Positions 1-64,000 of a stretch of 64,000 nucleotides of DNA are shown here, one piece after another (the stretch's first letter is position 1; each line of letters starts with the position of its first letter). The stretch is from a virus. The notes under the pieces are model-generated. The model did not search any database. It saw only the letters and a list, made by a program, of their open reading frames with translations, and was not told where the DNA came from. The DNA is taken from positions 1 through 64,000 of IMG/VR virus record IMGVR_UViG_3300007512_000009; one strand, given 5' to 3'. A program made the translations under genes and the position numbers.

Positions 1-429
1 TTTAAACAATACTTAAGAGAAATAGACCTAAACCCAGAAGAACCACCGTTCGACCCAACGGAACTTCCAGGCTTTCCATACTTACCATATGACCCGATGG
101 TGCCACCAAATCCTTATATGCCGGCTCCTCTACCCGACCCGTCGCAACCTAACCTACCAACCACACCAGAGTACCCTGATTTACCAGAGTATCCTAATAA
201 TCCTTATTGGGACCCCGACCTATTCCCACAATGGCCCTTCCCACCAGAGTATGTTCCATCAGGGCGTTTGCCTGAACCACCGTGGATACCAAGCAGGAGA
301 GATAGTGATGGCGATGGTATTCCAGACTGGGACGACGTTGACCCTCTAGACCCTTTAAATCCTAGTTTAACACCAACAAACCCATTAGCCCCAGAATATG
401 ATGAAGATGAAGATAATGTTATCGTTTAA
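1..429 (+). CDS. Pro/Asp-rich low-complexity protein with capsid-targeting-like leader (5' partial)
   Basis: Frame 1 is open from base 1 (FKQYLREIDLNPEEPP...) into the 97..429 ORF, so the start lies just upstream of the window. Contains DSDGDGIPDWDDVDP, a Ca-binding-like loop. Confidence 0.75.
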   Translation, partial: FKQYLREIDLNPEEPPFDPTELPGFPYLPYDPMVPPNPYMPAPLPDPSQPNLPTTPEYPDLPEYPNNPYWDPDLFPQWPFPPEYVPSGRLPEPPWIPSRRDSDGDGIPDWDDVDPLDPLNPSLTPTNPLAPEYDEDEDNVIV

Positions 430-1168
430 GCAATACATCATAGAAGAGTTACCGACAAAGGAAATCAAAATTTCTGAGTTTCCTAATCCCCTATCTGCAC
501 GTCTAAAAGCAATCTTTCAAAAGAAGGGTGATATGGATGGTAGTCAGGGTGATGATGTGGTTAAAACCAAATCAAAAAGTTGGAAAGCAGGAAAACTTCG
601 CCCATCTCAATCAGCAATATATCTTGGTAAATCACTAGGAATGGCCGTTGGTGGTGTAAAAGGTGGAAATTTGGGTTCTATCGTTTCTAATGATAAACAC
701 ATTCTTGACGGTCATCACAGATGGGCAGCAACTATGCTATCAGAACCAACAGCAAAAATCGGAGGTATTGAAGCAAATCTAGGAATTGGTGATTTAGTTC
801 CTGTGCTTCGTGCGTTGGGTGATTCTATTGGTAATGCACGACGAGGTGAACCAACTGGTGGAGATATTAACATCTTTAAAGCAACAGTTAAAGATGCTAT
901 AGATGCTCTAACCACTGGTAAAAACATGGCCCCCCAGTTTTATAACAAAGAAAAATCACTTGCTTGGTTGGAATCAATTGGTGGAAAAGAAGGATTAGCA
1001 AAAAGACTTAAAGACCTACAAAGTCATAGACCACCAAAAGGTGCACCACCACGAATTGAAATGCCTGTTATTGATGCAGATAAAGGTGATGAGAAGTTAG
1101 CGGCTAAACTTCTAAGAAAAGGTAAACTGGATGTACGTGAACCGTATGCAAATGGGCAACAAGCATGA
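416..1168 (+). CDS. ParB/Sulfiredoxin-like domain protein with capsid-targeting-like leader
   Basis: Start moved to ATG at 416 (MLSFKQYIIEE). LRPSQ...IVSNDKHILDGHHRWAA matches the ParB/Srx DGHHR motif. Confidence 0.75.
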   Translation: MLSFKQYIIEELPTKEIKISEFPNPLSARLKAIFQKKGDMDGSQGDDVVKTKSKSWKAGKLRPSQSAIYLGKSLGMAVGGVKGGNLGSIVSNDKHILDGHHRWAATMLSEPTAKIGGIEANLGIGDLVPVLRALGDSIGNARRGEPTGGDINIFKATVKDAIDALTTGKNMAPQFYNKEKSLAWLESIGGKEGLAKRLKDLQSHRPPKGAPPRIEMPVIDADKGDEKLAAKLLRKGKLDVREPYANGQQA

Positions 1169-1911
1169 AATCATTCAAGCAATATCTTAAAGAATCGACA
1201 GTATTGATGGACTTAATCAATAAATACGATGACCCATTCAGTTTTCTTGCAGCCTCTATGGATGCTATTGCTAACGGTACTCTCAAACTAAAACAAAGAG
1301 GACTAGCAAACGCTCGTGAATTGATTGCCGCTTGGAATAAAGTAAAGAAAAGAAAAATCAAACTGAAAGAAGCAACCGAATACATCTTAGAAAGAAGACA
1401 AGATTTAGTAAAGGGTTGGACATTTAAAAACAAGATTGCTACATCCACCACCGACTATAACTATTATCACATCCAACATATAATTAAAGAACCTAAAAAA
1501 TTTGGTTTAGATAAAAAGAAAATATTAAAAATTATTGAAGATAGTGCTAAGAATATGAGTGTACCAAACATCGAAGCATATGTAGAAGACCAATACGAAT
1601 CCCTTGGGAATGGTATTGTGGACAATGATGTATACATCGAAGAATACCTGAAGAAAAAAGGTTATTGTATGTTTGTCGTTGATAAGACACACGGTAGTGT
1701 TGAAGGATGGGATGAAAAATCTTGCAAAATGGGTGCAAAGGCTGTAGACGATAATTACCTACCATACGAAAGAGATGGATTCAAGTTGTTTGAAATTAAA
1801 CCTGTAAAGGGTAGACCTAAATACATCACCAACAAACTAGACTGGAATGACTTCGTAGAAGGTAAAAAAGCAAAACGAAAGTATGTTTCACCAATGGCAC
1901 AATTCAGATGA
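1165..1911 (+). CDS. Hypothetical protein, putative head-internal protein
   Basis: 248 aa. Leader MKSFKQYLKE, second LKE site near aa 68, ATGA overlap with the upstream gene. Confidence 0.75.
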   Translation: MKSFKQYLKESTVLMDLINKYDDPFSFLAASMDAIANGTLKLKQRGLANARELIAAWNKVKKRKIKLKEATEYILERRQDLVKGWTFKNKIATSTTDYNYYHIQHIIKEPKKFGLDKKKILKIIEDSAKNMSVPNIEAYVEDQYESLGNGIVDNDVYIEEYLKKKGYCMFVVDKTHGSVEGWDEKSCKMGAKAVDDNYLPYERDGFKLFEIKPVKGRPKYITNKLDWNDFVEGKKAKRKYVSPMAQFR

Positions 1912-2357
1912 TTTCATTTAAACAATATGTCGTAGAGTTATTCGAAAAACCATACAAGTGGAAAAAGAAAAAAGATGATGATATAGAAGCAGTGTATCAA
2001 TCAGCAACAAGTTCGAAAGATATAATAAAGGTTATATTTTCAAAGGGGTGGTCAAGAGGAATTGATAACTTGTTATTTACAGTTGGCGGTGACACCGATA
2101 CCACTGGTGGTGGTGATGCATTCAGAATAATGTCAACCGTGTTGGATATTATTAAGGACTATATTAAAAACAATGACCCAGAAGGGATAAAGTTCGCCGC
2201 AAATAAGGACGAACTCTTTGGTCAAGACTCTGAAAAAACACAAAGTCGAGAGAAACTTTATAATAAAATGATTGAACGGTTTGCTAAAAAGGCAGGATAT
2301 AAGGTGCATGCGGATAAACATAAGTACGGTACACAGTATAAGTTGACCAAAAAATGA
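1908..2357 (+). CDS. Hypothetical protein, paralogue family A (GxGxA..STV...F.A...R.KLY)
   Basis: Leader MISFKQYVVELFEKPYKW. Motif GGGDAFRIMSTVLDIIKDY...SREKLYNKMIERF. Confidence 0.8.
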   Translation: MISFKQYVVELFEKPYKWKKKKDDDIEAVYQSATSSKDIIKVIFSKGWSRGIDNLLFTVGGDTDTTGGGDAFRIMSTVLDIIKDYIKNNDPEGIKFAANKDELFGQDSEKTQSREKLYNKMIERFAKKAGYKVHADKHKYGTQYKLTKK

Positions 2358-2824
2358 TTTCATTTAAGCAATACATCACAGAGTTATTCGACAATCCACT
2401 GAAATGGAAAGAGTTTATCAAATCACCGAGAGCAAGAAAAGCAGAGTTTCGTGTAGGTGACTTTGGATATATTATCACTATTGAAATAGGTGACAAAGGA
2501 ATAGCACAACGAATGGGCGAAAAAGTGGCAGCATCAATTGAGTTTGGACTTGCAGATGAAAAAGGTGTATCAAAAGACGGTAGACAAAATAAACACAAAA
2601 TCTTAAACACAGGCAATGCAGGTTTAGTATTCTCTACAGTCATTGATTATGCAAAATATGTTATCAAACAAGAAGGTATCGGTAAGGTCATATTCACTGG
2701 ATGGGAGCCGTCACGACAAAAGTTATATTGGAAGTTGATGAAACGATTTTCGGGAAGCATTTTTAAGGGTGGTGTCGAACGAAAAGGTTCACGGTTCGTT
2801 GGACATATAGACAAGATAAAATAA
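2354..2824 (+). CDS. Hypothetical protein, paralogue family A
   Basis: Leader MISFKQYITELFDNPLKW. Motif TGNAGLVFSTVIDYAKY...SRQKLYWKLMKRF. Confidence 0.8.
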   Translation: MISFKQYITELFDNPLKWKEFIKSPRARKAEFRVGDFGYIITIEIGDKGIAQRMGEKVAASIEFGLADEKGVSKDGRQNKHKILNTGNAGLVFSTVIDYAKYVIKQEGIGKVIFTGWEPSRQKLYWKLMKRFSGSIFKGGVERKGSRFVGHIDKIK

Positions 2825-3180
2825 TGAAATCATTTAAAGAATTTGTTAACGAACATTATGATGAATACGGTATTCCAATGGATGGTGGATTGAACCATGA
2901 CCATGATGGTATGGGACCACATAGTCATCCATGGGATGCACCGTTTGATTACGATAATTGGCCTCCATTAGAAGATTGGGAGAAGGAATGGGACCCAGAT
3001 GACCAAGACGGTGATGGGAAAAAAAATTGGGAAGACGATGATTATGTTCCACCAATTCCATGGGACGAAAACAATCCAGACCACCCAGATTATGTTCCTC
3101 CAGGCCCCGTTGGACCATTTTACCCAAACGCCCCTTTATACCCAAGCGACCCACCACAAGACCCACATTGGATAGTTTAA
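2824..3180 (+). CDS. Pro/Asp/Trp-rich peptide with capsid-targeting-like leader
   Basis: Leader MKSFKEFVNE. DQDGDGKKNWEDDD loop. Confidence 0.75.
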   Translation: MKSFKEFVNEHYDEYGIPMDGGLNHDHDGMGPHSHPWDAPFDYDNWPPLEDWEKEWDPDDQDGDGKKNWEDDDYVPPIPWDENNPDHPDYVPPGPVGPFYPNAPLYPSDPPQDPHWIV

Positions 3181-3181
3181 C

Positions 3182-3616
3182 ATGGGTTTATTTTCTTCAC
3201 CATCTGAAATCGACATACAGTATGAAAACGACACTGATATAAGAGGTACATTTAAAGCAGGTGATACCGACTATAAAGTGTGGGGTAGACACAACTACCT
3301 AATGAGCGGAACTAGTTTGGGTGAGAATGTGTGGGAAATGTTTTTCGCTATGTGTGAAGATGATGACAAAATTTATGGTTTGCATGACACCAAACCAAAC
3401 GGTGCAGGAAATGCAGCCAAGGTGTTTGCAACGGTGATTGAATTCATGAGATATGTAAATAAAAAACATCAACCAAGCGATTTTGTTTTCTCTGCAAAAG
3501 ATGAAAAGCAACAAAGAATATACCTAAAGTTGATTGAAAGATATCAAAAACTTGGGGAAATAAATAACATATCCACCTCTGAAAAAGGAAACATAATTAA
3601 ATTTGAAGTCGTTTAA
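3182..3616 (+). CDS. Hypothetical protein, paralogue family A (no leader)
   Basis: Motif GAGNAAKVFATVIEFMRY...FSAKDEKQQRIYLKLIERY. Confidence 0.75.
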   Translation: MGLFSSPSEIDIQYENDTDIRGTFKAGDTDYKVWGRHNYLMSGTSLGENVWEMFFAMCEDDDKIYGLHDTKPNGAGNAAKVFATVIEFMRYVNKKHQPSDFVFSAKDEKQQRIYLKLIERYQKLGEINNISTSEKGNIIKFEVV

Positions 3617-4805
3617 GCAATACATCTTAACAGAATCCAAAAATACACACCTAGAGCATCTTGAAGATGAAATCTGGAATGCGGGTTCTGCTGGCGCTGA
3701 CAACGCTATCAAATTTTTAAAAGGTGTATCAGACATGCTTACCAGCAATGTCAGTTCGTCCCACAATGTTACGGTTAAGTGGGATGGTGCACCTGCTATT
3801 ATTGCAGGAGTAAACCCAGAAAACAATAAATTCTTTGTTGGAACAAAAAGTGTATTTAATAAGGGTACACCAAAGATTAACTACACTAGTAGGGATGTTG
3901 ATAAAAACCACAGTGGTGACCTTGCTGTTAAGTTGAAAATTGCTCTAAATGAACTACCTAAAATTGGAATAAAGGGTGTGCTTCAGGGTGATTTTATGTT
4001 TGACTCCAGTAGTCTGGGTTCTATGAAAATGGACGGTAAAAGTCATACTACTTTCACACCCAACACCATAACTTACGCAGTGGAAGATGGTAGTCCTCAG
4101 TCTAAAGCAATTAAAGGTGCTAAAATGGGTATAGTATTTCACACTGAATACAAAGGTAAAATACTTGCTGACATGAAAGCATCATTCAGACCGAACATCA
4201 AAAAACTTAAAAAGACCAAAGCGGTATGGTTCAGAGATGCTGATTTTAAAGACGAAAGCGGTGCATCTACTTTAACTACTGGTGAAAAAAAATCTGTCGA
4301 TAAAGCAATCGAGAATGCATCTAGTAAACTAAGTAAGGCATCGGGATTTATTGATAACCTCCAAAGGGACATAACACCTAAAATAAAGACTTATGTAAAC
4401 AGTACGATTAAGAACGGTTTGTCCAATTCCGATTATAAAGGTTTCGTGTCTTATATAACTGACCAGTTTGACACAGCCATTAGTAAACTAAAGACAGACA
4501 GAGGCAAAGAGAATAAATCCAAAAATCGTGATGATGCTCTAAAATATCTTAAGACCAATAAATCGGGTCTTACCTCCCTGTTTGATTTACACAAATCATT
4601 GAGTGTAGCAAAAATGATGTTGATAAAAAAACTCGAAAAAATAGGTGGTATTGGTACATTTATTAGAACGGATGACGGATTCAAAGCAACAGCACCAGAG
4701 GGATTTGTGGCTGTTGATGATACAGGAAAAGCCTTAAAATTAGTGGATAGACTTGAATTTAGTCGGGCCAATTTTACGGTTGCAAAAAACTGGGTTAAGG
4801 GCTAA
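3603..4805 (+). CDS. ATP-dependent ligase-fold nucleotidyltransferase (RNA-ligase-like; resembles the DUF6267-type protein of marine T4-like phages)
   Basis: TTG start, leader MKSFKQYILTE. KNTHLEHLED N-terminus; motif I VKWDG, motif III LQGDF, motif IV EGFVA, motif V LKLVDR. Confidence 0.7.
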   Translation: MKSFKQYILTESKNTHLEHLEDEIWNAGSAGADNAIKFLKGVSDMLTSNVSSSHNVTVKWDGAPAIIAGVNPENNKFFVGTKSVFNKGTPKINYTSRDVDKNHSGDLAVKLKIALNELPKIGIKGVLQGDFMFDSSSLGSMKMDGKSHTTFTPNTITYAVEDGSPQSKAIKGAKMGIVFHTEYKGKILADMKASFRPNIKKLKKTKAVWFRDADFKDESGASTLTTGEKKSVDKAIENASSKLSKASGFIDNLQRDITPKIKTYVNSTIKNGLSNSDYKGFVSYITDQFDTAISKLKTDRGKENKSKNRDDALKYLKTNKSGLTSLFDLHKSLSVAKMMLIKKLEKIGGIGTFIRTDDGFKATAPEGFVAVDDTGKALKLVDRLEFSRANFTVAKNWVKG

Positions 4806-4811
4806 GACTGT

Positions 4812-4819
4812 TATAAATA
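4812..4819 (+). promoter_or_regulatory. T4-type late promoter TATAAATA
   Basis: Exact octamer in the intergenic gap upstream of the ORF at 4864. Confidence 0.75.
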
Positions 4820-4863
4820 TATTGAATTTTTATCTTTTACAAACAACAACGAGGGAAATAAAA

Positions 4864-5064
4864 ATGGCTAGTAAAGAATGGGTAAGGTTTAATGAAGACG
4901 CAAAAGCAAAACAACATAGAACAGTACATGTTGAAAAATATGGTGGTGAATTTGTCTATCGTGGTAACAGCAGAGGCTGGCACTGGGTAAACGGTACTTC
5001 AACACCAAAACCTGAAGTTGCATCATTTAGCAAAAAGAAAAAAACAACAACAAAGCAAAAATAA
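4864..5064 (+). CDS. Small basic hypothetical protein
   Basis: Start moved to ATG at 4864 behind a GAGG RBS. 66 aa, Lys-rich tail. Confidence 0.7.
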   Translation: MASKEWVRFNEDAKAKQHRTVHVEKYGGEFVYRGNSRGWHWVNGTSTPKPEVASFSKKKKTTTKQK

Positions 5065-5405
5065 TGAGCAATAGGGTTGATTATCTTAGAGAACGTGTGA
5101 TACGTAACATTATTGATAATGTTGTATTAAGCGAGGCGCCCGGCTCACCTGCTGTTGGTGGCGATGGTGGTGGTGGTACTAAATCAGGCGGCGGTGACAG
5201 TTATTTTACTGGAGGAGTTGCTGGGATGGAATTGGATAATGTTTTCTTTCCAACGGCAGATGTTATGAAACAAAAAATACAACAACCACAGTTTAATAAA
5301 GCACAACAATTATGGTTTATGAATAACTGGCAAAAATTACCACGTAATATCCAAGCACAAATGTTAAATTTATTAAAAAAGAAGAAGAAAAGATATGAAT
5401 ATTAA
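5064..5405 (+). CDS. Hypothetical protein
   Basis: 113 aa, coupled to its neighbours. Leader ends VVLSE, followed by a Gly-rich linker. Confidence 0.7.
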   Translation: MSNRVDYLRERVIRNIIDNVVLSEAPGSPAVGGDGGGGTKSGGGDSYFTGGVAGMELDNVFFPTADVMKQKIQQPQFNKAQQLWFMNNWQKLPRNIQAQMLNLLKKKKKRYEY

Positions 5406-6327
5406 TTTTGAACAGTTTGACCCACTTGATAGAAAATCAAAGTCTACCATTATTAATGAGCAAAGAAAAAGAATGCCTAGAGGTGATATGCTTCAAAAGA
5501 TTATGAGTATGATAAACCAAGGTAAAAAAAAGAAAAGAGGCCCGCAACCTCAGGGAGCAGAACGCTCTATGATGCCTGGTGGTATGGATGACCTTGGTGG
5601 ATTGATGGGTATGATGCAAGGTCAGCAAAAACCTGGCCAAATGCCCCCAGAGATGGATATGTGGGATGCTTACTCTGGTAAAAAACAAAAATTCATGACA
5701 AAAAATGCTGAAGAAGGAAAGCCTGGACTAGAATCTTCAAGAGATATTAATGGTAACATCATGAAAGGTTACATGGATGCAGCCGCCTCAATGAGAATTT
5801 CACAACCCTCTGGTGGTAATGACCCAACTAAATTTAATGTTCCTCATGGGTCGGGTAGTGACCCAAGGATGGTTCGTGGATTATCACCAGAAGATTTACC
5901 ATTACAAATGGATTATAAACAATTAGACCAAATAAAGAAACCGTCATTAGAAGCAGGAATGAAAGACCCTCAGGTTGCCGCACCACATCAAACGCCTGGC
6001 GCACCTGTTGATATTCCAGATGGTATGGGTGGTACTGACCAACAAAAATCGCAAGCAATGAAAGGGGCCGCATTCTTTGGTGGTAAACCAGAAATGCCTG
6101 AACCACAACAAGGTGGAATGCCTGGCGGTGGTGGTGACATGGGTAGCATGATGCAACAAATGATGGGTGGTGGTCAACCTCAAGGTGGTGGTCAACCTCA
6201 AGGAATGCCTCCAATGCCGAAGATGGGTGGAAAAGAAGGTCAAGCACCAGACATGATACAAAAACTAATGTCAGACCCAAAAATCAAAAAATTTTTGCAA
6301 AAATTAATGCAAGGTATGAAAAAATAA
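5395..6327 (+). CDS. Gly/Met/Gln/Pro-rich, probably disordered protein
   Basis: 310 aa, low complexity. Includes an 18-bp duplication (GGGQPQ x2) at 6166-6201. Confidence 0.75.
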   Translation: MNINFEQFDPLDRKSKSTIINEQRKRMPRGDMLQKIMSMINQGKKKKRGPQPQGAERSMMPGGMDDLGGLMGMMQGQQKPGQMPPEMDMWDAYSGKKQKFMTKNAEEGKPGLESSRDINGNIMKGYMDAAASMRISQPSGGNDPTKFNVPHGSGSDPRMVRGLSPEDLPLQMDYKQLDQIKKPSLEAGMKDPQVAAPHQTPGAPVDIPDGMGGTDQQKSQAMKGAAFFGGKPEMPEPQQGGMPGGGGDMGSMMQQMMGGGQPQGGGQPQGMPPMPKMGGKEGQAPDMIQKLMSDPKIKKFLQKLMQGMKK

Positions 6328-6328
6328 A

Positions 6329-7254: not shown

Positions 7255-7262
7255 TATAAATA
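7255..7262 (+). promoter_or_regulatory. T4-type late promoter TATAAATA
   Basis: Exact octamer directly after the stop codon at 7254. Confidence 0.7.
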
Positions 7263-7281
7263 ATAATAAAGGAGAAACGTT

Positions 7282-7425: not shown

Positions 7426-7438
7426 TAAGTAAAAATAG

Positions 7439-26405: not shown

Positions 26406-27497
26406 ATGATGATTGAAAATGGTAAGGTAAACTTTTTGATTGATGGACAATGGGGAAGCACTGGTAAAGGTAAACTAGCAGGTTATCTTTATAGTAAACA
26501 TCCAGAACTGACAATGGCAATAAGTGATAATATGCCTAATGCAGGACATACTTTTACAAGAGATGGAAAGAACTTCATTTTTAAAGCACTACCTACTGGT
26601 GTTCTATTTGACGGAGTGACATCGCTAATCGGACCACAATCAGTTATTGGTGAAGAACAATTTCAATACGAAATGGAAATGGTAAAAAATGAAATTGGTC
26701 ATTACCCGAAAATCATAATTCACCCGATGGCATGCGTTGTCACAGCAAGTGATAAAGATGCGGAAGCAGAAATCGTCAGCAAAATGGCAAGCACTGGACA
26801 AGGTTCGTGTGCAGCCACTGTTAAGAAAATGTGGAGAGCGGGCGAAGCAAACCTTGCTAAAAACAGCAAAATCTTAGAACCTTTCGTGGGTGATACACAT
26901 GAATTTTTACAAGAAAATTTAAAGAATGGTGGAACAGCACTTTCAGAAGGAAGTCAAGGTTTTGACCTTTCAATGAATTGCGGTCATTCTTATCCCCATA
27001 CAACATCTCGTGATTGTCTTATCGGTCGAATGATGGACAACGCAGGTTGTTCGGTCAAATCAGTTGGTAGTATCATTGCTTGTCTTCGAACTCTGCCTAT
27101 TCGTGTAGGTAGCACAGAAAATACCAGTGGCCCCTACTACGATGACCAAGTTGAACTAAATTGGGGTGATGTTTCAAATATGTGTGGGTATGATGTTGAA
27201 GAAAAAACAACAGTGACTCAAAGAATCCGTCGTGTGTTTACAATGTCGGAACAGCAAACACGCAAATTCTGTGAGTACGTGCGACCAGACTATGCATTTT
27301 TGAATTTCGTTAATTACTATGATGAACCAATGGACAGACTAGATGCAATAAATGATGTAGCAAGCATTTTGAATGAATACGGATGTGATTTAACACTACT
27401 TGGTACTGGTGCTGAACTCGATGCAATGGAAATGACTGACAATGCAACCATATCTACACAACATACAGAATTGTTAAAAAATACTCAATGTTTATGA
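26406..27497 (+). CDS. purZ: PurZ-type N6-succino-2-amino-2'-deoxyadenylate synthase (PurA paralogue)
   Basis: IDGQWGSTGKGK (Ser in place of the PurA catalytic Asp), PNAGHT, EGSQG, TTSRDC, GPYYDDQVELNW, TTVTQRIRRVF, FLNFVNY in place of TKLD. Confidence 0.85.
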   Translation: MMIENGKVNFLIDGQWGSTGKGKLAGYLYSKHPELTMAISDNMPNAGHTFTRDGKNFIFKALPTGVLFDGVTSLIGPQSVIGEEQFQYEMEMVKNEIGHYPKIIIHPMACVVTASDKDAEAEIVSKMASTGQGSCAATVKKMWRAGEANLAKNSKILEPFVGDTHEFLQENLKNGGTALSEGSQGFDLSMNCGHSYPHTTSRDCLIGRMMDNAGCSVKSVGSIIACLRTLPIRVGSTENTSGPYYDDQVELNWGDVSNMCGYDVEEKTTVTQRIRRVFTMSEQQTRKFCEYVRPDYAFLNFVNYYDEPMDRLDAINDVASILNEYGCDLTLLGTGAELDAMEMTDNATISTQHTELLKNTQCL

Positions 27498-28078
27498 GTA
27501 ATAACACAATAATTCATTGCGTAATAGGGCAAGCAGGCTCTGGTAAATCAACTTTTATACTCCAAAATTTTCCATCGGAAGAACACATTTTTTACAACGT
27601 GGGTTCTATCCTAAGAAAGATGTTCGGTGCCAGCATTGGCAAGAAACAAGATGGTAATAAAAACACGTGGGATTTTGCAGACCCTTTAGTTTATAACGTG
27701 TTTGACCATTGTCATCATATATCAAGAACTCATAATGTACCAATGGTTTCTGATGGGTTTCCGAGAAATATTAATCAACTGGACTATATAGACAAAGTGC
27801 TTAGAGTCGCTGAATATGGTAAAGTTGAAATAAACTTTCATTTATTAGATATCAGTGAAAAAGAGCAGGTACGTAGAATATTGGAAAGAAATGGTCAACT
27901 TGACCAGTACCATATAGAAAGGATTGCTGAATCACGACATAACTTTGAATGCGTTATAGAACGTCTTGAAGGTATCCTTCTTGGTGAAACCGAAAACCTT
28001 GTCTACAACTTAAACTGGTATAAACAAGAAAACGGTTCATTTCAAAAAATTAGTACAGTTAAGCATTCTAGAATATAA
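27488..28078 (+). CDS. Adenylate-kinase-like nucleoside monophosphate kinase
   Basis: P-loop GQAGSGKST, NVGSILR, DGFPRNINQ, RRILER. Overlaps the end of purZ by 10 nt. Confidence 0.85.
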   Translation: MFMSNNTIIHCVIGQAGSGKSTFILQNFPSEEHIFYNVGSILRKMFGASIGKKQDGNKNTWDFADPLVYNVFDHCHHISRTHNVPMVSDGFPRNINQLDYIDKVLRVAEYGKVEINFHLLDISEKEQVRRILERNGQLDQYHIERIAESRHNFECVIERLEGILLGETENLVYNLNWYKQENGSFQKISTVKHSRI

Positions 28079-30994: not shown

Positions 30995-31777
30995 TTATGA
31001 ACCACAAATTCTGATATCAGCAGTTCCTGTACCATCAATTACTACTCGTAGTCCTTCTGGTTTTGATGCTTCAATGAATATTGTTCCAAATTTAAGTAGT
31101 GGGAATCCATGCGCCAAAGCACCGCTTCCTGCTGTTAAACTGGTTGCTGCCGTTGCTCCAATATAAACATCTGAAGGCCCCAAATTTGTAACTCTGAATC
31201 CTGTGGTGAATGTACCTGCGGGAAGGGTTGTTCGTGCTAGGTCTGAGGTTTGGTCGATTGTAACGCCCCCTGAGGTAAATCCGTAAGAGGGGATAGCAAC
31301 AGTAAGAACATCAACATCACCGATGTTATTTGTGCTGGCTGCCAGTTTAACATCACCTGTTATTTGTGCAGTAATACCAAGAAGACCATTAGAAGCAACA
31401 CAAACTGTAGCACCGACACCAAAACCTTTAACTGTACTAATGTAATCTAAAGTACCACCTACGATTTTATCCACAGTACCACCATGTAATGTGACACCAG
31501 CAATACTTAGAGATGCACCACCACAAATTTCGATTGGTACTGCTAAAGTACCTGATGTGTTACCTGCACACGGTACGAATGTTTGACTTGGTGCATTGGT
31601 ATATGCGATAGGCAGTGGTGCGGTATTTGTTAATATAGAGTCTACACCATCACCTCCAACATTAATTTTAACTTCCTGCCAATGTCCAACATTGTCCCCA
31701 CCATAATCAGTGGCAAAGGTAGCCCCCGAAGGGTCGGTTGATGTAAGTTGAACGTTATCAGATGTTATTTGAGCCAT
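30995..31777 (-). CDS. Putative virion structural protein
   Basis: 260 aa, Gly/Thr/Ala-rich, beta-strand character. Confidence 0.6.
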   Translation of the reverse strand: MAQITSDNVQLTSTDPSGATFATDYGGDNVGHWQEVKINVGGDGVDSILTNTAPLPIAYTNAPSQTFVPCAGNTSGTLAVPIEICGGASLSIAGVTLHGGTVDKIVGGTLDYISTVKGFGVGATVCVASNGLLGITAQITGDVKLAASTNNIGDVDVLTVAIPSYGFTSGGVTIDQTSDLARTTLPAGTFTTGFRVTNLGPSDVYIGATAATSLTAGSGALAHGFPLLKFGTIFIEASKPEGLRVVIDGTGTADIRICGS

Positions 31778-56700: not shown

Positions 56701-58866
56701 AAATTTGATGTTAACACATTACCTTCAGGGTTAACATTGACTTCTGGTAGAGTTGTAACTTACGACTTCACAGAAGAGAAGGCACTAGGTGTATCGTTTG
56801 GTACTAGTTCGCTGAAAGTCAACCCTTATGGTAATACAGATTTCTTAGGTTATCTAAAACTAAATCCTGCATCTGATTTTTGGTATGATACAGAAACCAA
56901 TCCAGAGGTTTTGGTCAATTCATTTGGTGAAAACAACCAATATCAAACAACAGGGAACGCATGGCAAGCAGGACGTTCTGCGGGTTGGGGTAGCGAATAT
57001 GGTGAATGGAGAAGTCACTGGTTGGGTTCAGAAGAGTTGAATGAAACCATGTCGAAAGTAGACCCCTTAGACAGAAATTATAAATTACCAGTAAAATCAG
57101 CAAGGGCCCAGTTACCTGACAGAGTTCTAAGAGAATCTAACGATAGAACAGTGGATGAAAGTATTGTTCCTTATATGAGGTCAGTAGGTGTTACTTTTGA
57201 TGCTACTGGTTTATTGCCTGGTTCAACAGTTTATGCTTTATTTGATGGTGTATTGGTGGGTGCATCCGGCACAGGTTACTCGGTTAGTAGTCAAGGTGCA
57301 GTTAGCGGTAGAGTTACAGTTGGTAACTCCTATTTAACAGGTGAGAAGACATTTAGATTAACAAACAGTAATACAGACACTTTAAGTAGTACAACAACTG
57401 CAGCCGATGCTAAATTCTATTCACAAGGTTTGTTAAATAGCAAAAGTTCTAATATCATCTCAGATAGACCTGCTATGTCTAGAAGGAAATCTGTTAACAG
57501 CGATAGCATCATTAGCGGACCATATTTGAACACAGTGGATGGTAATTATTCTTCTGTTCAAAACGGATTAGACCCTCTAACACAAGAAATAATTGTGGAT
57601 GCGGGTGCTTTCCCTCAAGGTGTATTCTTAAGTAGTGTTGAGTTATTCTTTAAGAAAGCAGATACTTCTTTACCAGTAACAATCGACATCAGACCCGTTG
57701 TTAATGGTGCACCACACGATTTCTTAGTAGTACCTCATTCAGAAGTTACAGTATTACCAACTACAACTTCGGACGGGCCTAATGGTGGATTAGGAACTAA
57801 ATTTAGTTTTGAATCACCAGTTTATTTACCGCCTGGAAATTGGGCTATCGGTATAATGTCTAATAGTAGCAATAATATATTGTTTAAGGCAGAAGTTGGT
57901 AATGTTTGGTTAGATATAGATGGTACACAAAATGCAAACTCAGACATCTATGGTGGTATGGGATACGGTAATGGAATTCGCCCAGGCAAAATGTTTAAAC
58001 CTTTAAATAATGGTTCTAGACAAAGTAGCAGTCTTGAAAGTGTTACCATGAATGTTCATAGGTGCAGTTTCAGTGGTGGTTCTTTAACCAAAGAACAAAG
58101 AACTCTAATATTAGATGCTACAATGTCATCAGGTTCAACAGCATATGGTCATATAGCAAACGTTGTTAGCAATGACCAGTTATTTACATCAAGTAGCGTA
58201 AGACCTATTTATGATTTGAAGGTCAATGGTGTTAGGTATTCTGGTATTATACCAAATAAAGATGTTACTTTAGTGAAACAAGAAACAATAGATGAAACAG
58301 GTGATATGCAATTAGAGGTAGAATATGGTAGCACTACATCTTCCCTATTAACCCCTGTGTTAGATATGGATAGGATTGGGTCGGTGTTAATCCATGATAG
58401 ATTTACTTGGGCTGTAGTTGGTGCTGATACTGGTTCGGTTCTAGGTGAAACACAAAAGAACTCTGCAGGAGCACCTACTATTGCAAGATATGTATCCAAA
58501 AAATTACATTTTGGTAATTTGATTGCTGACGATTTGAGGGTCTATCTAGACATTGCTCGAAATCAAGGACATGTCAAAGTATTCGCTAAGGTAAACAACG
58601 ATGATGAAGATTTTAACAATATAAAATGGGTTCAACTATATAAGGATGGTGATGCTGAAAAGGAATGGTGGACCGACAGCCAAGCGGAAGTGCTAACACC
58701 AATAGAATTCATGCCGCAGTCCAGTCCAGTTGTCACTTCTTTAGGTGAATTTGATGTTTATGCAATCAAGATTGTGATATTTGGTAGCGATTTGGGTGAA
58801 GGGGATGCAACAGGGATGCCAACAATCAAGAATTTGAGAGCGGTAGCACTAAAGTCTACGGTTTAA
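53791..58866 (+). CDS. Large baseplate/fibre-attachment protein (VrlC/DUF4815-like)
   Basis: PYYDDYDEDK.F...LFKPG..IQARELTQLQ...APGADRY...ARRTFDESGNY...LIDDF. Confidence 0.85.
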   Translation: MPQNYDAQLFNKTPYYDDYDEDKRFLRSLFKPGVAIQARELTQLQTVLQTQIERMGSHIFDNGAVIAGGGIAESKINYARLGTADALTSTALSSLVGQQIYDPNHINGVVLHVLSGSTLSSDPNQVVFYQYTSNGIFTEGTQIGTTGSDSVGVTFSIANSGTTAPSIGADANIFTVDDGIFYVDGYFIRNSKQSAVPYYTTGNYSATTGDSRYRGFGSPTSSVGWSVERTVTDHNGDVSLRDPSAGFNNYNAPGADRYTVNLTLSHVPFDGSIGSASGLTFDNKDFVELVRVVGGSSTKTVKYTDYAEIEETFARRTFDESGNYTVNAPKLRVISHGSVFSPSDSTKFAVGIDPNKSYVGGFEVDTQSVAYLEVDKTRDIGEVPAYGENLDTALGNYVLVNRTDVDGGFGGASQGDFNESALAMSKQRSFSIWKDFSISGTSIGSCNLRTIVNNPDDKNLKAYLFNVGMSSDGASGYKFSSAGYLVADDTGSGHTGATGVFFKLKADASGWTGPHDAGKRSLIFPVANNKTIGKSGPAYESKYNSKFVVQKTSTAHFSSDADGSTVSMSDSIGLLDADDDNYVVWFGATSDTYTGVSASILDPSEYNIKIYGADSTNAKFVLSLVGMSGPADGSTASILHPVIYNSNRITTNTGQKVYRTLTQTTQSSTTVSTSETVYFNGATSAKFILNHAHVYDVKEVSNEGNDIALSDITIEDGQRQSAFHRSSVYIPVSSLVLVGSEYRCLFTYDYYAHSGIGPVTVNSYPDSYEDVPEFNDPDSGKILKLREHIDFRPVQNSDNTYTEFGIPFFKNNNSYSQIGYSYYLPRIDKISLCKDRTYRVIKGVPSINPQSPQTSSEDMDLYLLKIKPYVFNLGKDVDAKYIDNRRFTMKTIGELENQVENVERDRHLESMYTSAVALGAAVTSTTLIEEGTLIDDFSGHAFGDVSNRDNNCSMDFKDRGLKAPFTTNALKFDVNTLPSGLTLTSGRVVTYDFTEEKALGVSFGTSSLKVNPYGNTDFLGYLKLNPASDFWYDTETNPEVLVNSFGENNQYQTTGNAWQAGRSAGWGSEYGEWRSHWLGSEELNETMSKVDPLDRNYKLPVKSARAQLPDRVLRESNDRTVDESIVPYMRSVGVTFDATGLLPGSTVYALFDGVLVGASGTGYSVSSQGAVSGRVTVGNSYLTGEKTFRLTNSNTDTLSSTTTAADAKFYSQGLLNSKSSNIISDRPAMSRRKSVNSDSIISGPYLNTVDGNYSSVQNGLDPLTQEIIVDAGAFPQGVFLSSVELFFKKADTSLPVTIDIRPVVNGAPHDFLVVPHSEVTVLPTTTSDGPNGGLGTKFSFESPVYLPPGNWAIGIMSNSSNNILFKAEVGNVWLDIDGTQNANSDIYGGMGYGNGIRPGKMFKPLNNGSRQSSSLESVTMNVHRCSFSGGSLTKEQRTLILDATMSSGSTAYGHIANVVSNDQLFTSSSVRPIYDLKVNGVRYSGIIPNKDVTLVKQETIDETGDMQLEVEYGSTTSSLLTPVLDMDRIGSVLIHDRFTWAVVGADTGSVLGETQKNSAGAPTIARYVSKKLHFGNLIADDLRVYLDIARNQGHVKVFAKVNNDDEDFNNIKWVQLYKDGDAEKEWWTDSQAEVLTPIEFMPQSSPVVTSLGEFDVYAIKIVIFGSDLGEGDATGMPTIKNLRAVALKSTV

Positions 58867-58874
58867 AAAGAAGA

Positions 58875-58882
58875 TATAAATA
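58875..58882 (+). promoter_or_regulatory. T4-type late promoter TATAAATA
   Basis: Exact octamer upstream of 58904. Confidence 0.7.
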
Positions 58883-58903
58883 CTAATAGGAAAATAGTAA
58901 AAA

Positions 58904-60382
58904 ATGGGAACATCGACAACAACACCACCTTCAGGAACAACATCAGACCCAGTACCTAGTCTGTATTTGTCTGATACATTTTATACATGGTATAATAATA
59001 CCAATGATTTGATTAACAAAGTAAATCCGATTGAGGTCTATACCATTCGTGGTATTACTCATAGTGACCATAGTGTTACCTATCAAGCAGGTGGTACTAA
59101 TGATTTCGAAGGTGTTACCCTTGATGATTTAGGAAATGGTAACTGGAGAATTGGTTACATCCTTCCAGAGAAGATTACTGGTGGTCATACTTGGTATCAA
59201 CATGCTGATTTTAAAAAGGGCCCATCTGGTCACATTGCAAATAGTTTTTGTGGTAGAACTGGTGAAATCGTTGGTGCGAATACCGTAAGTGGTAGATATC
59301 CAGAAATAACTGGTGGTACAGGTAATATTACTGGTTGTGTCATCGAAATTAATAGTCTTTTGGCATCAGCAGGTGGTACTATCTCCCTTACTGCGGGTGA
59401 CATTTCTGGTTCTCTTGGACGTGCTACTGGCCCACAAGGTTACATATTAGGTTCGACTGTTGATGGGTCACCAATCCAAGAACCAATCAGATTGTTCCAA
59501 GGTTACGTTGATACCTTACAGGATGCTTTGTTTTTGGTAGGACATGCGGGTGACACAGCAGGTATTGGTTCTCCACCGAGAGCAGTATTCGGTAGCAGTA
59601 CAGTACCTTCTCACCCAAGCCATTCGAGTTCTTTGGTAACAATTGATTCGATAGGTATGTCTGGTGCTTCATATGACCAACACGGTCTTGTAATTAGCCA
59701 AAACCTCAATAAAGGGTATCATATTAAGTCCTCCACTGGTGGATTTGGTCTAGCGGCCTCTGGAGGCGTCTACATTGATATTCAAAGCGGTGCAGGTAAC
59801 ACTGGTTCATTTGTTATCAAAAAATCTACTGTTGCAGAATCTGGATACTCTGCAGGTACTGAATTGTTTAAAATAGACCCCGACAGTACCATGCATTTAA
59901 CCAATATAATTCAGGATTCTGCAAGCAACACAGCAACTGGCGTATCGGCTGGATATTTTTTAATTTCTGATGCTAACAGTAAAATGGTATGGAAGAATGC
60001 ACCAGAGGGTGCATGGGAGTATTCTACTGACTCTGTCATAGAGAATGCACAATGGTTCAAACTGAATAATGTTCCTGATAATGTCATAGGGTCGACCGAT
60101 AGTCACATGTTAACAGTTTATTGGAGTAATGGTTCAGCCCAAGGTCAATATTCCCCAACTGGTACAATGAAGGTGCAAACCACGGCCGACAGTGCCGACG
60201 CAGTTACCATTTCAAATACAGTAACATTCCACGGAAACGGCTCTAATGATGGCGGAGGTACTATAATTAACAAAGTATTTGGCGAAAAAACGATGCTTGT
60301 TGAACCCAATGGTCATGCTGGCCAGTTCTATATCTATCACAGCCCAAGAGGTGGAAACCTTGAATACTATATATGGTCATAA
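58904..60382 (+). CDS. Putative short fibre / virion protein
   Basis: SDTFYTWYNNTN N-terminus typical of fibre anchors; Gly/Ser/Thr-rich. Confidence 0.65.
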   Translation: MGTSTTTPPSGTTSDPVPSLYLSDTFYTWYNNTNDLINKVNPIEVYTIRGITHSDHSVTYQAGGTNDFEGVTLDDLGNGNWRIGYILPEKITGGHTWYQHADFKKGPSGHIANSFCGRTGEIVGANTVSGRYPEITGGTGNITGCVIEINSLLASAGGTISLTAGDISGSLGRATGPQGYILGSTVDGSPIQEPIRLFQGYVDTLQDALFLVGHAGDTAGIGSPPRAVFGSSTVPSHPSHSSSLVTIDSIGMSGASYDQHGLVISQNLNKGYHIKSSTGGFGLAASGGVYIDIQSGAGNTGSFVIKKSTVAESGYSAGTELFKIDPDSTMHLTNIIQDSASNTATGVSAGYFLISDANSKMVWKNAPEGAWEYSTDSVIENAQWFKLNNVPDNVIGSTDSHMLTVYWSNGSAQGQYSPTGTMKVQTTADSADAVTISNTVTFHGNGSNDGGGTIINKVFGEKTMLVEPNGHAGQFYIYHSPRGGNLEYYIWS

Positions 60383-60417
60383 CAAAAATGAAAAAAAGGT
60401 TAAATTAATAAAAAAAT

Positions 60418-61425
60418 ATGGCATCAAAAACAATAAGATATAGTTATTTACTAACAGGTGGTAGAGTGAGTGGCGGCTCTGGTGGAACACCAGACAACGA
60501 TGACCTTACCGAACATGGTGCGAGTACGTATAGAACATATACTGTAGGTATCGATGATAAATTTTCAAAAGGAGATTCTAAACGAGCAAGAGGCAGTGTG
60601 ATGGAAGCACTTGGACCATATCCATATGGAACAGAATATATATTATACGCTGAAGGTGGATGCGGTGATTTTGTTTTGGGTACTACTTGCCAACAGCAAG
60701 TTGGTGGTGAAACATTAAATGCAATAGTGACATTATGGGAACACACTACTAGCCATAACTTTAACATTTGGCCAGGTAATACAAATGGATATATTCTTGG
60801 TATAGCAAATGTTGGCCCGACTGGTGGTACAGGACTCAACGGGCCGACGGGGCCTGGACACAGTGGTGGTTACACAGCCAATAGTGCAGGTACTGGTGGA
60901 AAAGTTTTTCATGGTACTACACATGGTTGGTCTGGTGGTGGTTGTTCTTGGGATGTTAGGGACATAAATAGAATAATAAATCCAGACGATTACAGAACTG
61001 TATGTACAGATTTCGAAATAGATGCTATCACCCAAGGTATTGATTATACTGCTTTATTATATAATGAAAGTGGTAATACACTGGATTTGACCAACACCAT
61101 TACCCACATGGAAGAGTTAAAACATAAAATATATAACAACCACACTATTTACGGTACTGCCAATGCGAATTTTTCTATAAGTGGATGTGTAATAATGGAT
61201 TCCAACGGAGATTCTTTTACTATAAATGCTATTTCAGGTGGAACACCAGATAATGGTAATGTATCTCAGTTTACTACTCTTTATTATCATTGGTCTATAG
61301 CCGATGATGCATTTGATGTAATTAGAGATGGAATTCTTTCTGACTATACAGCAGGAACTGGTGGTAGCCAAGGAGCATTAGATTCTGTTCATAAATTACG
61401 AACACTATACGATAGCAGGAATTGA
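60418..61425 (+). CDS. Hypothetical virion protein
   Basis: 335 aa, Gly/Thr-rich, in the late cluster. Confidence 0.6.
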   Translation: MASKTIRYSYLLTGGRVSGGSGGTPDNDDLTEHGASTYRTYTVGIDDKFSKGDSKRARGSVMEALGPYPYGTEYILYAEGGCGDFVLGTTCQQQVGGETLNAIVTLWEHTTSHNFNIWPGNTNGYILGIANVGPTGGTGLNGPTGPGHSGGYTANSAGTGGKVFHGTTHGWSGGGCSWDVRDINRIINPDDYRTVCTDFEIDAITQGIDYTALLYNESGNTLDLTNTITHMEELKHKIYNNHTIYGTANANFSISGCVIMDSNGDSFTINAISGGTPDNGNVSQFTTLYYHWSIADDAFDVIRDGILSDYTAGTGGSQGALDSVHKLRTLYDSRN

Positions 61426-61434
61426 ACATAAAAT

Positions 61435-62184
61435 ATGGCTACACCAACATCCAGACAGACTCTTAAAGAATACTCACTACGAAGGTTGGGTCATCCTGTC
61501 ATCGAAATTAATATTGATGACTCTCAGATGGAAGATAACCTTGATGATGCTATCCAATTCTTCCAAGAATACCACTTTGATGGTGTGCTTCAAGTATATT
61601 TAAAACACCAAGTCACATCAAGTGATATAACTAATGGTTATATAGACATGGATGCTGTTGATTCGAATGTAGTTTCTGTAACTAAACTATTCAATCTCGC
61701 TGTAAATTCAGTAAATCTCTTCGATGTTTCCTACCAACTTGCATTGAACGACTTCTTTGGTACTTTTACTTCAGGTACTTTAACTAATTACACACTAAAC
61801 AAGCAACACCTAGAAATGTTGGAAGACATTTTAGACCCAGAAAAGAATATACGATTTAATAAGGTGCAAAATAGATTATATGGTGATTTTAATTGGAGCG
61901 ATGATTTGGATGCTGATGATTATCTTGTTATAGAAGCATATTCAAAGTTAGACCCAGAAACTTATACAGAAATTTATAATGATAGACTATTAAAAAAATA
62001 TACTACTGCATTATTTAAAAGAACATGGGGCAGTAACTTATCGAAATTTGAAGGTGTTCAATTGCCTGGCGGAATCCAATTTAACGGTCAAAGGATTTTG
62101 GATGAGGCTAGAGAAGAAATTCAAAAGATAGAAGAAGAGGTGCAAGAAACTTATGAATTACCACCAGACTTCAGTGTAGGATAA
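61435..62184 (+). CDS. gp13: Neck protein
   Basis: P.SR..LKEY.LRRLGHPVIEIN...YHFDG...LKKYTTALFKR.WG.NLSKF.GVQLPGG. Confidence 0.95.
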   Translation: MATPTSRQTLKEYSLRRLGHPVIEINIDDSQMEDNLDDAIQFFQEYHFDGVLQVYLKHQVTSSDITNGYIDMDAVDSNVVSVTKLFNLAVNSVNLFDVSYQLALNDFFGTFTSGTLTNYTLNKQHLEMLEDILDPEKNIRFNKVQNRLYGDFNWSDDLDADDYLVIEAYSKLDPETYTEIYNDRLLKKYTTALFKRTWGSNLSKFEGVQLPGGIQFNGQRILDEAREEIQKIEEEVQETYELPPDFSVG

Positions 62185-62203
62185 AAGGGGTTAAATAACA
62201 TTT

Positions 62204-63076
62204 ATGGCTATTAATCCACATTTTAAACCCCAAAAAGGTGAACAAGATATAATTGAAGACTTGACCGTAGAAACGATTAAAATTCACGGTCATGATTTTA
62301 TATATTTACCAAGAACACTAGTTAAAGAAGATGAATTGTTTGGTGAAGATGTACTATCTAAATTCACCAATGGGATAGAGTTGGAAATGTATATTGAATC
62401 TGTAGACGGATTTGAGGGCGAAGGTGATTTTATCTCTAAATTTGGTCTTGAAATTAGGGATTCGATGAGTTTGGTATTGTCTAAGAAAAGATTTACACAA
62501 GAGGTGACACCTGTAGTACCTACTGTTTTAACTCCTAGAGAGGGGGATTTGATTTATTTTCCCAAAACACAGGGTATTTTTGAAATCAAATTCGTAGAAC
62601 ATGAAAACCCATTCTACCAATTAAACAAACTATATACCTATAAACTTTCATGTGAGTTATTCCAATACAGTCAAGAAGATATCGATACTGGTTGGACAAA
62701 TGTGGATAAAATTGAATCCGACAGGATGGATTTTGTCGTTGAATTAACTATGACTGGTGGTGTAACTGGTACGTTTGAAACTGGTGAATATATATTTGAT
62801 AATGCAACGTATGCTACTTCAACCAACACCGCAGAAGTTATCAAATGGACATCTTCTACTAAGGTTATGCAAATTGCAGGTCAATCTGGTAATATCGGAC
62901 TGGTTGGGGTCACAGGACAATGTGGTGGATATGCAGTTGTCGGTTCTACAGCATCACCATCAACTACTACTGTCATCCCTACAGACACCTATTCCGATAA
63001 TAGGGATTTCCAAATTGAAGCAGATGATATATTTGACTTTACTGACCAAGACCCATTCTCAGAGGGTAATTATTAA
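62204..63076 (+). CDS. gp14: Neck protein
   Basis: EQ...EDL..E.IKIHG...YLPR...FGED..SKF...EGDLIYFP...EHE.PFYQL...DPFSE. Confidence 0.95.
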   Translation: MAINPHFKPQKGEQDIIEDLTVETIKIHGHDFIYLPRTLVKEDELFGEDVLSKFTNGIELEMYIESVDGFEGEGDFISKFGLEIRDSMSLVLSKKRFTQEVTPVVPTVLTPREGDLIYFPKTQGIFEIKFVEHENPFYQLNKLYTYKLSCELFQYSQEDIDTGWTNVDKIESDRMDFVVELTMTGGVTGTFETGEYIFDNATYATSTNTAEVIKWTSSTKVMQIAGQSGNIGLVGVTGQCGGYAVVGSTASPSTTTVIPTDTYSDNRDFQIEADDIFDFTDQDPFSEGNY

Positions 63077-63918
63077 TGTTTGAGATTTTTTATAACAAAG
63101 CAGTAAGAAAACTCACAGTAGCAATGGGTTCTCTGTTCAACAATATTCATGTTGTAAGAACCGATGCTGATGGTGATATCACATCTCAAATTCGTGTACC
63201 CTTAGGTTACGGGCCGAAAGAAAAATGGATTAGAAGACTTAGAGAATCCAACTCTCTTGCGGATGATACTAATGATGTAGAAATTACTTTACCGAGATTA
63301 AGTTTCGAAATGAATAGTATCCATTATGACCCTGCTAGAAAGAAAAATACCATGCAAAAAAGATGGTATAGACACACCGATAATACTAAATTATATACAA
63401 ACTACATAGAAGTACCCTATGATTTTGAGTTTAGTGTTACTGCTATGGTGAAATTTATGGAAGATGGGTTGTGTATTATGGAGCAAATTTTACCATATTT
63501 CACTCCTGAGTTTACTGTTACTATCAACTTTAATGACATTAATCAATCTGTTGATATCCCTATTATCCTTAACTCTGTAGAAGTGAATGAAGAATATGAA
63601 GGTGATTTTGATGCACGAAGATTGATTACTTTTGACATGTCGTTCACAGCGAAATCCAACGTGTTTGGCCCAACAAAAACAAGCCAACCTATTCAAACAG
63701 CAATTGCTACTATCTGGGAGCCAAATTCATTCTACCACGATGGTACATCTCTTGGTATGTCTGGTACAACTGCAGCCATGTCCAAACTTACTGTCGGTGT
63801 TACGGGACCAAGTGGTGCGTCTTCTGGTGTGGATACCTTCACTGGATTTACTGTGGGAACTAGAGTTTATGGTATGACTGGAGAAGATGGTATAAGTCTT
63901 GATGGAACTAATTTATGA
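63076..63918 (+). CDS. gp15: Tail sheath stabiliser / tail terminator
   Basis: FYNK..RK....G.LFNNI...VPL.YGPK.K...LPR.SFE...VPY...EQILPYF.P. Confidence 0.95.
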   Translation: MFEIFYNKAVRKLTVAMGSLFNNIHVVRTDADGDITSQIRVPLGYGPKEKWIRRLRESNSLADDTNDVEITLPRLSFEMNSIHYDPARKKNTMQKRWYRHTDNTKLYTNYIEVPYDFEFSVTAMVKFMEDGLCIMEQILPYFTPEFTVTINFNDINQSVDIPIILNSVEVNEEYEGDFDARRLITFDMSFTAKSNVFGPTKTSQPIQTAIATIWEPNSFYHDGTSLGMSGTTAAMSKLTVGVTGPSGASSGVDTFTGFTVGTRVYGMTGEDGISLDGTNL

Positions 63919-64000
63919 GTGATAATGATAAAAAGAAAAGTGTTAATGAAAAAATTGCAGATGCTCTCGATATAAACCTTGATAATGATAAAACAAAACC
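63915..64000 (+). CDS. Start of the next gene, probably terminase small subunit (3' partial)
   Basis: ATG overlaps the gp15 stop: MSDNDKKKSVNEKIADALDI. gp16 normally follows gp15. Confidence 0.5.
   Translation, partial: MSDNDKKKSVNEKIADALDINLDNDKTK

Follow-up and report, generated by a model that had tools for sequence, protein, structure and literature searches.

We analysed a window of 64,000 nucleotides, bases 1–64000 of the IMG/VR viral contig IMGVR_UViG_3300007512_000009 (full length 126,210 bp, estimated to be 70% complete), and found that four families of restriction sites, CCWGG, CCGG, GCGC and GCWGC, survive in it only where they are preceded by G or followed by C, that is, where they overlap a GGC/GCC triplet. 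The pattern is real, absolute and far beyond chance. Some protective DNA modification directed at GCC/GGC quite probably exists, as far as the pattern of sites can tell. Our main reading is more specific: the modification would lie at G-S-C (S, C or G) and would be N4-methylcytosine (m4C), made by a 544-aa amino-methyltransferase encoded on the same contig; we give this reading a probability of roughly 0.4. The contig carries homologues of T4-type baseplate genes, gp32, gp45, gp44, gp43, UvsX, gp46 and CobS, and its DNA polymerase is ~50% identical to the polymerases of cyanophages (marine cyanomyoviruses). At the DNA level no cultured close relative was found, and a search of Logan contigs returned matching DNA in marine metagenome runs only. 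Judged by these features, the source phage is an uncultured marine T4-like myovirus.

An exhaustive count of the window gave 33 CCWGG, 14 CCGG, 10 GCGC and 30 GCWGC sites, and each of the 87 is preceded by G or followed by C. An earlier sequence-only reading of this DNA, made by eye, had claimed exactly this and had put the number of CCWGG sites at about 30; the claim turned out stronger than stated, as the remaining 62 kb of the contig, outside the stretch then read, follow the same rule (17/17, 15/15, 7/7 and 34/34 sites, respectively), which makes 160 of 160 for the whole contig. The example positions given at the time were right within a few bases, apart from a GCGC placed near 31089, to which the nearest site lies at 31111. 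As null model, synonymous codons were shuffled 100 times within each of the 148 open reading frames (ORFs) of the whole contig, keeping the protein and the codon usage of each gene. This flank-conditioned, codon-preserving comparison, which the sequence-only reading had proposed, gave ~245 unflanked sites expected against 0 observed. Numerous sites of the unflanked forms (H, not G; D, not C) were the observation named in that reading as speaking against the rule, and there are none: HCCWGGD 0 versus 57 expected, HCCGGD 0 versus 86, HGCGCD 0 versus 37 and HGCWGCD 0 versus 65, the lowest values in any shuffle of the four classes being 25–63.

The exempting flank is narrowly defined. Sites with a 5' C or a 3' G that lack a 5' G or 3' C are not exempt (0 versus ~61 expected), which rules out a general rule of any S at the flank. 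The base beyond the GGC triplet is unconstrained, and GCGC is exempt in GGCG contexts too, which likewise rules out RGCY or another 4-bp motif. With exemption limited to a 5' G or 3' C, the rule is overlap with GGC/GCC, the palindromic 3-mer GSC. The exempt forms are in excess for CCWGG (GCCWGG 25 versus 14 expected, CCWGGC 33 versus 12) and GCWGC (GGCWGC 31 versus 16, GCWGCC 40 versus 12), and are not depleted for the other two families (GCCGG 21 versus 24, GGCGC 14 versus 18). Such an excess is expected if coding constraints, for example Pro-Gly, are met by a switch to the tolerated form. As the sequence-only reading had noticed, Pro-Gly is indeed commonly written CCA/CCT-GGC: GGC, only 7% of all Gly codons, is used in 29 of the 45 CCW-GGN pairs.

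Table 1. Coordinates of the conditionally avoided sites, with one example of each exempt family, and of the candidate enzyme gene (contig positions).
Feature	Coordinates	Strand	Remarks
Conditional avoidance of CCWGG, CCGG, GCGC and GCWGC (survival only with 5' G or 3' C)	1..64000	.	Exhaustive counts and shuffles; holds for the full 126,210 bp
Exempt CCWGG, cttCCAGGctt	67..71	.	GGC (top strand) and GCC (bottom strand) through the 3' C
Exempt CCGG, atgCCGGCtcc	121..124	.	Both 5' G and 3' C
Exempt GCGC, ctgGCGCTgac	3694..3697	.	GGC through the 5' G
Exempt GCWGC, tggGCAGCaac	725..729	.	GGC through the 5' G
544-aa amino-methyltransferase ORF with SPPY motif	84,534-86,168	+	Outside the window; leading candidate enzyme

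It is very improbable that such a pattern arises with no modification at all, through flank preferences of host nucleases, constraints on codons or dipeptides, or chance. The codon-preserving null predicts hundreds of sites where there are none, and the rule was replicated in the half of the contig that had not been seen. The same flank discrimination would be needed in at least four unrelated enzyme specificities. Moreover, a flank on just one of the strands is enough, in keeping with hemi-modification, and the exempt forms are enriched although synonymous changes could have removed every such site. A purge-unless-modified logic is the only explanation we found that fits, and we favour it because it accounts for the absolute, strand-symmetric pattern in which one flank suffices, as well as for its recurrence in relatives with differing avoidance profiles.

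According to this logic, the phage DNA would be modified sequence-specifically at the 3-bp palindrome G-S-C. A host restriction site overlapping such a triplet would be modified on at least one strand and left uncut, and selection would remove only the copies that lack the overlap. Hemi-modified sites would escape cleavage, the overlapping triplet placing the modified base inside the site on one strand; host sites are hemi-methylated once they have been replicated, and restriction enzymes have to tolerate this state. The modification would most economically be placed on the third base, C, of G-S-C. According to the REBASE assignments, this base is methylated by Dcm/EcoRII, HpaII, HhaI, TseI/Fnu4HI and HaeIII in G|CCWGG, G|CCGG, G|GCGC, G|GCWGC and GGCC, respectively, so that protection would follow with no extra assumption. 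As GSC is palindromic, both strands would be marked; the contig has roughly 1100 GSC sites. Alternatively, the modification may sit at the middle base pair, where either the second G of GGC or the central C of GCC would be modified. Both placements fit the data, which leaves these two bases and the 3' C of G-S-C as candidates. Among the available site types none was found that separates a third-base from a central-base-pair placement; GS|CGCG would do so, its survival being predicted by the third-base model, and 0 are seen versus 4.6 expected. The modification at GCC proposed in the sequence-only reading is thus the sole explanation found to fit. In the literature searched we found no published description of flank-conditional avoidance or of a GSC specificity.

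Avoidance in the contig extends further than the sequence-only reading had recognized. GATC, AGCT, CGCG and GAGAC could not form G-S-C around the protected base; this would leave them no escape and would account for their loss. The palindromes GATC (0 observed, 330 expected from the shuffles), AGCT (0/282) and CGCG (0/45), which are unable to overlap GSC, are totally absent; GAGAC plus GTCTC (5/108), GGTACC (1/25), CTCGAG (0/6) and GACGTC (0/8) are also low. Restriction-site avoidance, understood as palindromes of 4–6 bp far below what composition and codon usage predict, is therefore found for GATC, AGCT and CGCG together with the four conditional sites. GGCC, which itself contains GSC, is not depleted (118 versus 90 expected); GGSCC is enriched (61 versus 26) and GGWCC depleted (36 versus 87). 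Two further scarcities were noticed. GGAACC/GGTTCC occurs once versus 36 expected, so that together with GGTACC the whole class GGWWCC is almost absent from the contig, and we know of no enzyme that fits it. CGCCG/CGGCG is found 5 times versus 30.

A phage methyltransferase (MTase) encoded elsewhere had been postulated in the sequence-only reading, with a search for C5 and N4 enzymes as the way to find it. On the contig this search returned one gene of the SPPY type (Table 1), the sole DNA-MTase-like gene found in 126 kb, and no C5-MTase; the link between this enzyme and the flank rule is correlative and is contradicted by three phage genomes discussed below. The gene lies between gp46 and a 374-aa ORF, upstream of RNase H, gp45 and gp44. 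Its product has an S-adenosylmethionine (AdoMet) motif I, DPSAGWGG, at residues 320–327, with D320 and G324 invariant, and a motif IV, TSPPYF, at residues 414–419, in which S415 and Y418 are invariant and P416 and P417 at least 90% conserved (52 homologues, down to 26% identity). Within the motif IV (S/D/N)PP(Y/F) of exocyclic-amine DNA MTases, SPP(Y/F) is typical of N4-cytosine enzymes. The two hallmarks of exocyclic-amine MTases, the catalytic motif IV and the AdoMet motif I on a class-I Rossmann fold, are both found: the AlphaFold2 model (pLDDT 92) has the class-I MTase fold, and the nearest solved structures are the exocyclic-amine MTases Trm11, TrmN, Trm14 and METTL5 (Z 14.7–15.9). The N2-methylguanosine tRNA MTases lead this fold search by about 1 Z unit, a margin too small to name the target base.

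Sequence searches placed the protein in a large viral family. More than 1800 homologues were found, viral and from marine metagenomes; its atlas neighbours are all viral, some of them named N4-cytosine DNA methylases, and identity to proteins of cultured phages is at most 31%. Many homologues at 58–72% identity carry PF01555 (N6_N4_Mtase), with 32.6 bits for the copy of the relative G022. A PDB sequence search returned only 2zie (profile E 0.013), a search of NCBIfam gave no match, and in a Pfam scan the whole protein had no hit at E ≤ 0.01. An alignment-based scan for distant MTase subfamilies with a changed exemption motif returned only homologues of at least 58% identity. No match was obtained to the C5-MTase family (PF00145) in the contig or in 10 related contigs, nor to the Dam (D12 class) and UPF0020 families in the contig. 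In marine myovirus-like genomes m4C is the commonest methylation (PMC8919816). The slot between gp46 (SbcC-like) and the 374-aa ORF/RNase H (contig 82817-88217 and the syntenic regions of the relatives G021, G024 and G028) is variable: our contig has the SPPY MTase there and G024 a Dam-like DPPY MTase (PHROG 56), and in G021 and G028 the slot is empty.

Dozens of contigs from related marine phages follow the flank rule as well; the comparison covered about 270 loci, each around a homologue of one of two genes, and the whole contigs of 20 relatives. Avoidance profiles vary among these lineages, some of which keep GATC and some of which lose CCGG entirely, while nearly all are without AGCT. Among relatives that carry the MTase, G002 has 56 GCGC and G022 has 63, none of them unflanked, and G001 has 112 CCWGG with 17 unflanked versus 174 expected. 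In the group L025–L041, about 50 CCWGG include a single unflanked copy, and CCGG is not avoided. Over 141 deduplicated loci the ratio of observed to expected sites (O/E) for CCWGG is ~1 or more for exempt and 0.05–0.25 for non-exempt forms, in every identity bin. A 50-kb stretch of the cyanophage S-SM2, used as control, has neither the avoidance nor the flank rule. Pooled loci with the MTase (1.48 Mb) have O/E of 1.18 for exempt versus 0.12 for non-exempt CCWGG and 1.34 versus 0.42 for GCGC; for loci with the gp46-RNase H slot but no MTase (0.29 Mb) the values are 0.58 versus 0.25 and 0.73 versus 0.35. Exempt forms are kept in 6 of 6 strongly CCWGG-avoiding lineages that have the MTase and are lost in 3 of 4 that lack it (G013/G015/L133–142, G024 and G007). 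The co-occurrence of MTase and exemption is thus suggestive, with lineages that were defined post hoc and with clear exceptions.

Several observations weigh against the 544-aa enzyme as the source of a G-S-C modification. Its own match to PF01555, from a search with read-through frames, reaches 22.4 bits and thus stays below the gathering score of 26.7, and the pooled association with MTase loci is not corrected for phylogeny. G021 (77 kb), with the slot empty and no amino-MTase motif on the contig, has 8 CCWGG, of which none is unflanked versus 59 expected. G024 (80 kb), in which the slot holds only the Dam-like MTase, has 16 GCGC with none unflanked versus 51 expected; it has no CCWGG at all, and GGCC is almost absent from it. 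Simple motif scans for other AdoMet-dependent enzymes in these two contigs, which are only 43–44% complete, found none besides the Dam-like gene of G024. Furthermore, GGCC is depleted in several MTase-bearing relatives, CCGG is wholly absent from G001 and G004 despite their MTase, and GS|CGCG sites, as described above, do not survive in the contig. The cultured phage described next obeys an absolute rule of the same kind and has no homologue of the SPPY MTase.

While seeking controls, we found a sister rule in HTVC008M, a Pelagibacter phage cultured with Pelagibacter ubique HTCC1062 as host and with a complete genome (NC_020484.1; loci L339–L341). All 83 GATC sites of this phage are GGATC or GATCC (HGATCD 0 versus 196 expected from codon-preserving shuffles) and all 43 GANTC sites are GGANTC or GANTCC (HGANTCD 0 versus 199). 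Ten of 11 CCGA are preceded by G (H-CCGA 1 versus 60), and CCGG and GCGC are partly filtered. TCGA (2 versus 193) and CGCG (1 versus 33) are rare in this genome too. If the third base of the triplet were modified, the protected base in HTVC008M would be the A of G-G-A; in the GATC and GANTC overlaps this A is the position of Dam and CcrM. Central placement would make the second G of G-G-A the protected base, near the motifs GA and GGC of the DpdA enzyme of phage CAjan. The complete genome of HTVC008M gave no homologue of the SPPY MTase, no PF01555 match, no amino-MTase, no C-terminal SPPY-type motif and no match to the TGT family at E ≤ 0.1, and its methyltransferase-like genes resemble small-molecule enzymes. 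Either HTVC008M uses an unrecognised modifier, maybe common to both phages, or different enzymes give analogous rules in each lineage. Adjoining the gp46 slot of HTVC008M lies gp106 (L340:36116-37258), a 380-aa hypothetical protein that matches the Druantia DruA family (PF14236, E 5.5e-18).

The same protective logic could therefore be carried out by a different, unrecognised phage system that is common to the relatives lacking the MTase and, with a wider motif (GGA plus GGC/GCC), to HTVC008M, the SPPY MTase then having another target; we regard this as a serious possibility, though one we are inclined to doubt. It would explain the flank exemptions without MTase in G021, G024 and the fragments G008/G009/G012, the absolute GATC and GANTC rule of HTVC008M without amino-MTase or TGT, and the presence of the signature in every identity bin of the deduplicated relatives as well as in MTase-less loci. 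However, no candidate gene was found for it; the genes common to the contig and HTVC008M are T4 core genes and a few unknowns; the modifier of G021 and G024 could sit in the missing part of these incomplete contigs; and the CCWGG exemption is missing in three of the four MTase-less CCWGG-avoiding lineages while it is present in all MTase-bearing ones. In its broader form, namely that marine T4-like phages including HTVC008M share a short-motif modification (G-S-C here, G-G-A and G-S-C in HTVC008M) whose enzyme family is missed by both DNA-MTase and DpdA profiles, the idea appears rather unlikely.

Two further sources of protection were considered. A conserved orphan enzyme of the host clade could modify GSC and protect every phage grown there, which would agree with the exemption in phage lineages both with and without their own MTase. 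We find this improbable: the motifs listed for methylomes of marine prokaryotic metagenome-assembled genomes include no 3-bp GSC methylation (PMC8919816), the rule is common to lineages that clearly differ in avoidance profile and therefore in host, and some close relatives do not have it. A DpdA-type transglycosylase that exchanges the second G of G-G-C for a 7-deazaguanine derivative, as in CAjan, is quite improbable as well, even though GGC is an experimentally shown DpdA target whose modification protects HaeIII sites (PMC7544227), each of the four exempt site types contains the second G of GGC, and the exemptions of HTVC008M can be written as G-G-A plus G-G-C, close to the CAjan motif pair. 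The DpdA/TGT family (PF01702) has no match at E ≤ 0.1 in the contig or, as mentioned, in HTVC008M, and none at E ≤ 0.01 in the contigs of 22 relatives (~1.9 Mb), with the limit that 30% of the genome of our phage is missing and that very divergent DpdA subfamilies may escape Pfam. QueC (PF06508) is likewise unmatched at E ≤ 0.1 over the whole 126-kb contig; FolE, QueD and QueE were not searched.

Further observations on avoidance in the relatives concern single sites. CCGG is totally absent, G- or C-flanked forms included, from G001 (0 versus 194 expected), G004, L075, L078, L079, L097 and L099; whatever acts against CCGG there is not blocked by the proposed modification. CCWGG obeys the flank rule in most of these CCGG-less contigs, L078/L079 being the exceptions. 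AGCT is the most widely shared avoidance of the clade, with 0–2 copies per 5–128 kb versus tens to hundreds expected in almost all relatives with an MTase of at least 63% identity and in several without MTase (survey of L002–L064, G002, G010, G011, G022, G024, G028 and G032); it is kept only in L042–L046, G001 and some more distant groups. Among residual unflanked CCWGG of relatives, CCCWGG/CCWGGG is far rarer than the A/T-flanked forms (for example 2 versus 74 and 7 versus 60 in loci without MTase), which suggests a further avoided word such as CCNNGG.

The pattern can be compared with known ways in which phages cope with restriction. In classical avoidance sites are simply lost, as GATC is absent from staphylococcal Twort-like phages. 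The near-total loss of the 4–6-bp palindromes GATC, AGCT and CGCG in our phage is alike, but the classical picture has no place for the four site families that survive here depending on their flanks. Methylation by Dam or Dcm blocks ClaI, XbaI and StuI at overlapping sites, and the flank-dependent logic is the same, a short motif that overlaps by one or two bases protecting that copy only. Here, however, the effect would be an evolutionary filter over the genome of the phage and its clade, and the proposed motif is the 3-bp GSC instead of GATC or CCWGG. The Bacillus phages SPR, phi3T and rho11s encode multispecific C5-methyltransferases (GGCC, CCGG, CCWGG, GCNGC), by which nearly the same set of host sites is protected with one enzyme. 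They methylate whole sites, and therefore no avoidance or flank rule would be expected from them; moreover, no such PF00145 enzyme was found in our contig. The chlorella-virus enzymes M.CviJI (RGCY) and M.CviPI (GC) are methyltransferases of very short motifs, and resemble the proposed system in being encoded by viruses and in covering many restriction sites together through very short, degenerate targets. RGCY was ruled out above, and AGCT, itself an RGCY sequence, is fully avoided in this phage. The m4C motifs RGCY, CCWGG, GGWCC and CCNGG have been measured in marine Myoviridae-like genomes, and GSC is not among the motifs of that study (PMC8919816). In CAjan the DpdA/preQ0 modification lies at GA and GGC (PMC7544227), in Pseudomonas phage iggy at GA only (PMC10484667). 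The partial, motif-specific modification of CAjan, which includes GGC and blocks enzymes whose sites contain it, is similar to what we propose. In contrast, no DpdA was found in our contig or its relatives and no QueC in our contig, and GA is clearly not protected here, because GATC and GAGAC are purged.

Some other genes of the contig deserve mention. A sugar-nucleotide/glycosyltransferase island at ~91.7–104.6 kb, with the clamp-loader genes on one side and gp43 on the other, contains a PseB/CapD-type dehydratase, a HAD protein, a nucleotidyltransferase, a GT10-like protein, a DegT aminotransferase, two epimerases and a small-molecule AdoMet-dependent MTase; it is partly common to G022, and we found no link to the flank rule. 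Within the window, positions 26406-27497 encode a 363-aa PurA-family protein that matches Pfam Adenylsucc_synt (3.6e-28) and PHROG 1211, a PurZ-type family. An adenylate-kinase-like gene follows (27488-28078), and a PurB-like lyase lies at contig positions 81372-82775. The phage may have a 2-aminoadenine genome, although its complete lack of GATC and AGCT is in tension with this. As the cause of the GATC avoidance the PurZ-like gene was ruled out, for G001 has PurZ (83% identity) yet keeps 649 GATC.

If our reading is true, abundant uncultured ocean myoviruses would use a new 3-bp target specificity for phage anti-restriction modification. The 544-aa enzyme, once cloned, should then render the DNA of E. 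coli resistant to HaeIII everywhere and should block HhaI, HpaII, EcoRII-type enzymes and TseI only at G-flanked sites. Virion DNA of HTVC008M should wholly resist enzymes of the MboI/Sau3AI and HinfI types despite its 83 and 43 sites. Should the enzyme not be the SPPY methyltransferase, an unknown modification system would await discovery in a cultured phage. A modification motif can be read from sequence alone, through the exempt copies of avoided sites, and this approach is applicable to any metagenomic phage genome.

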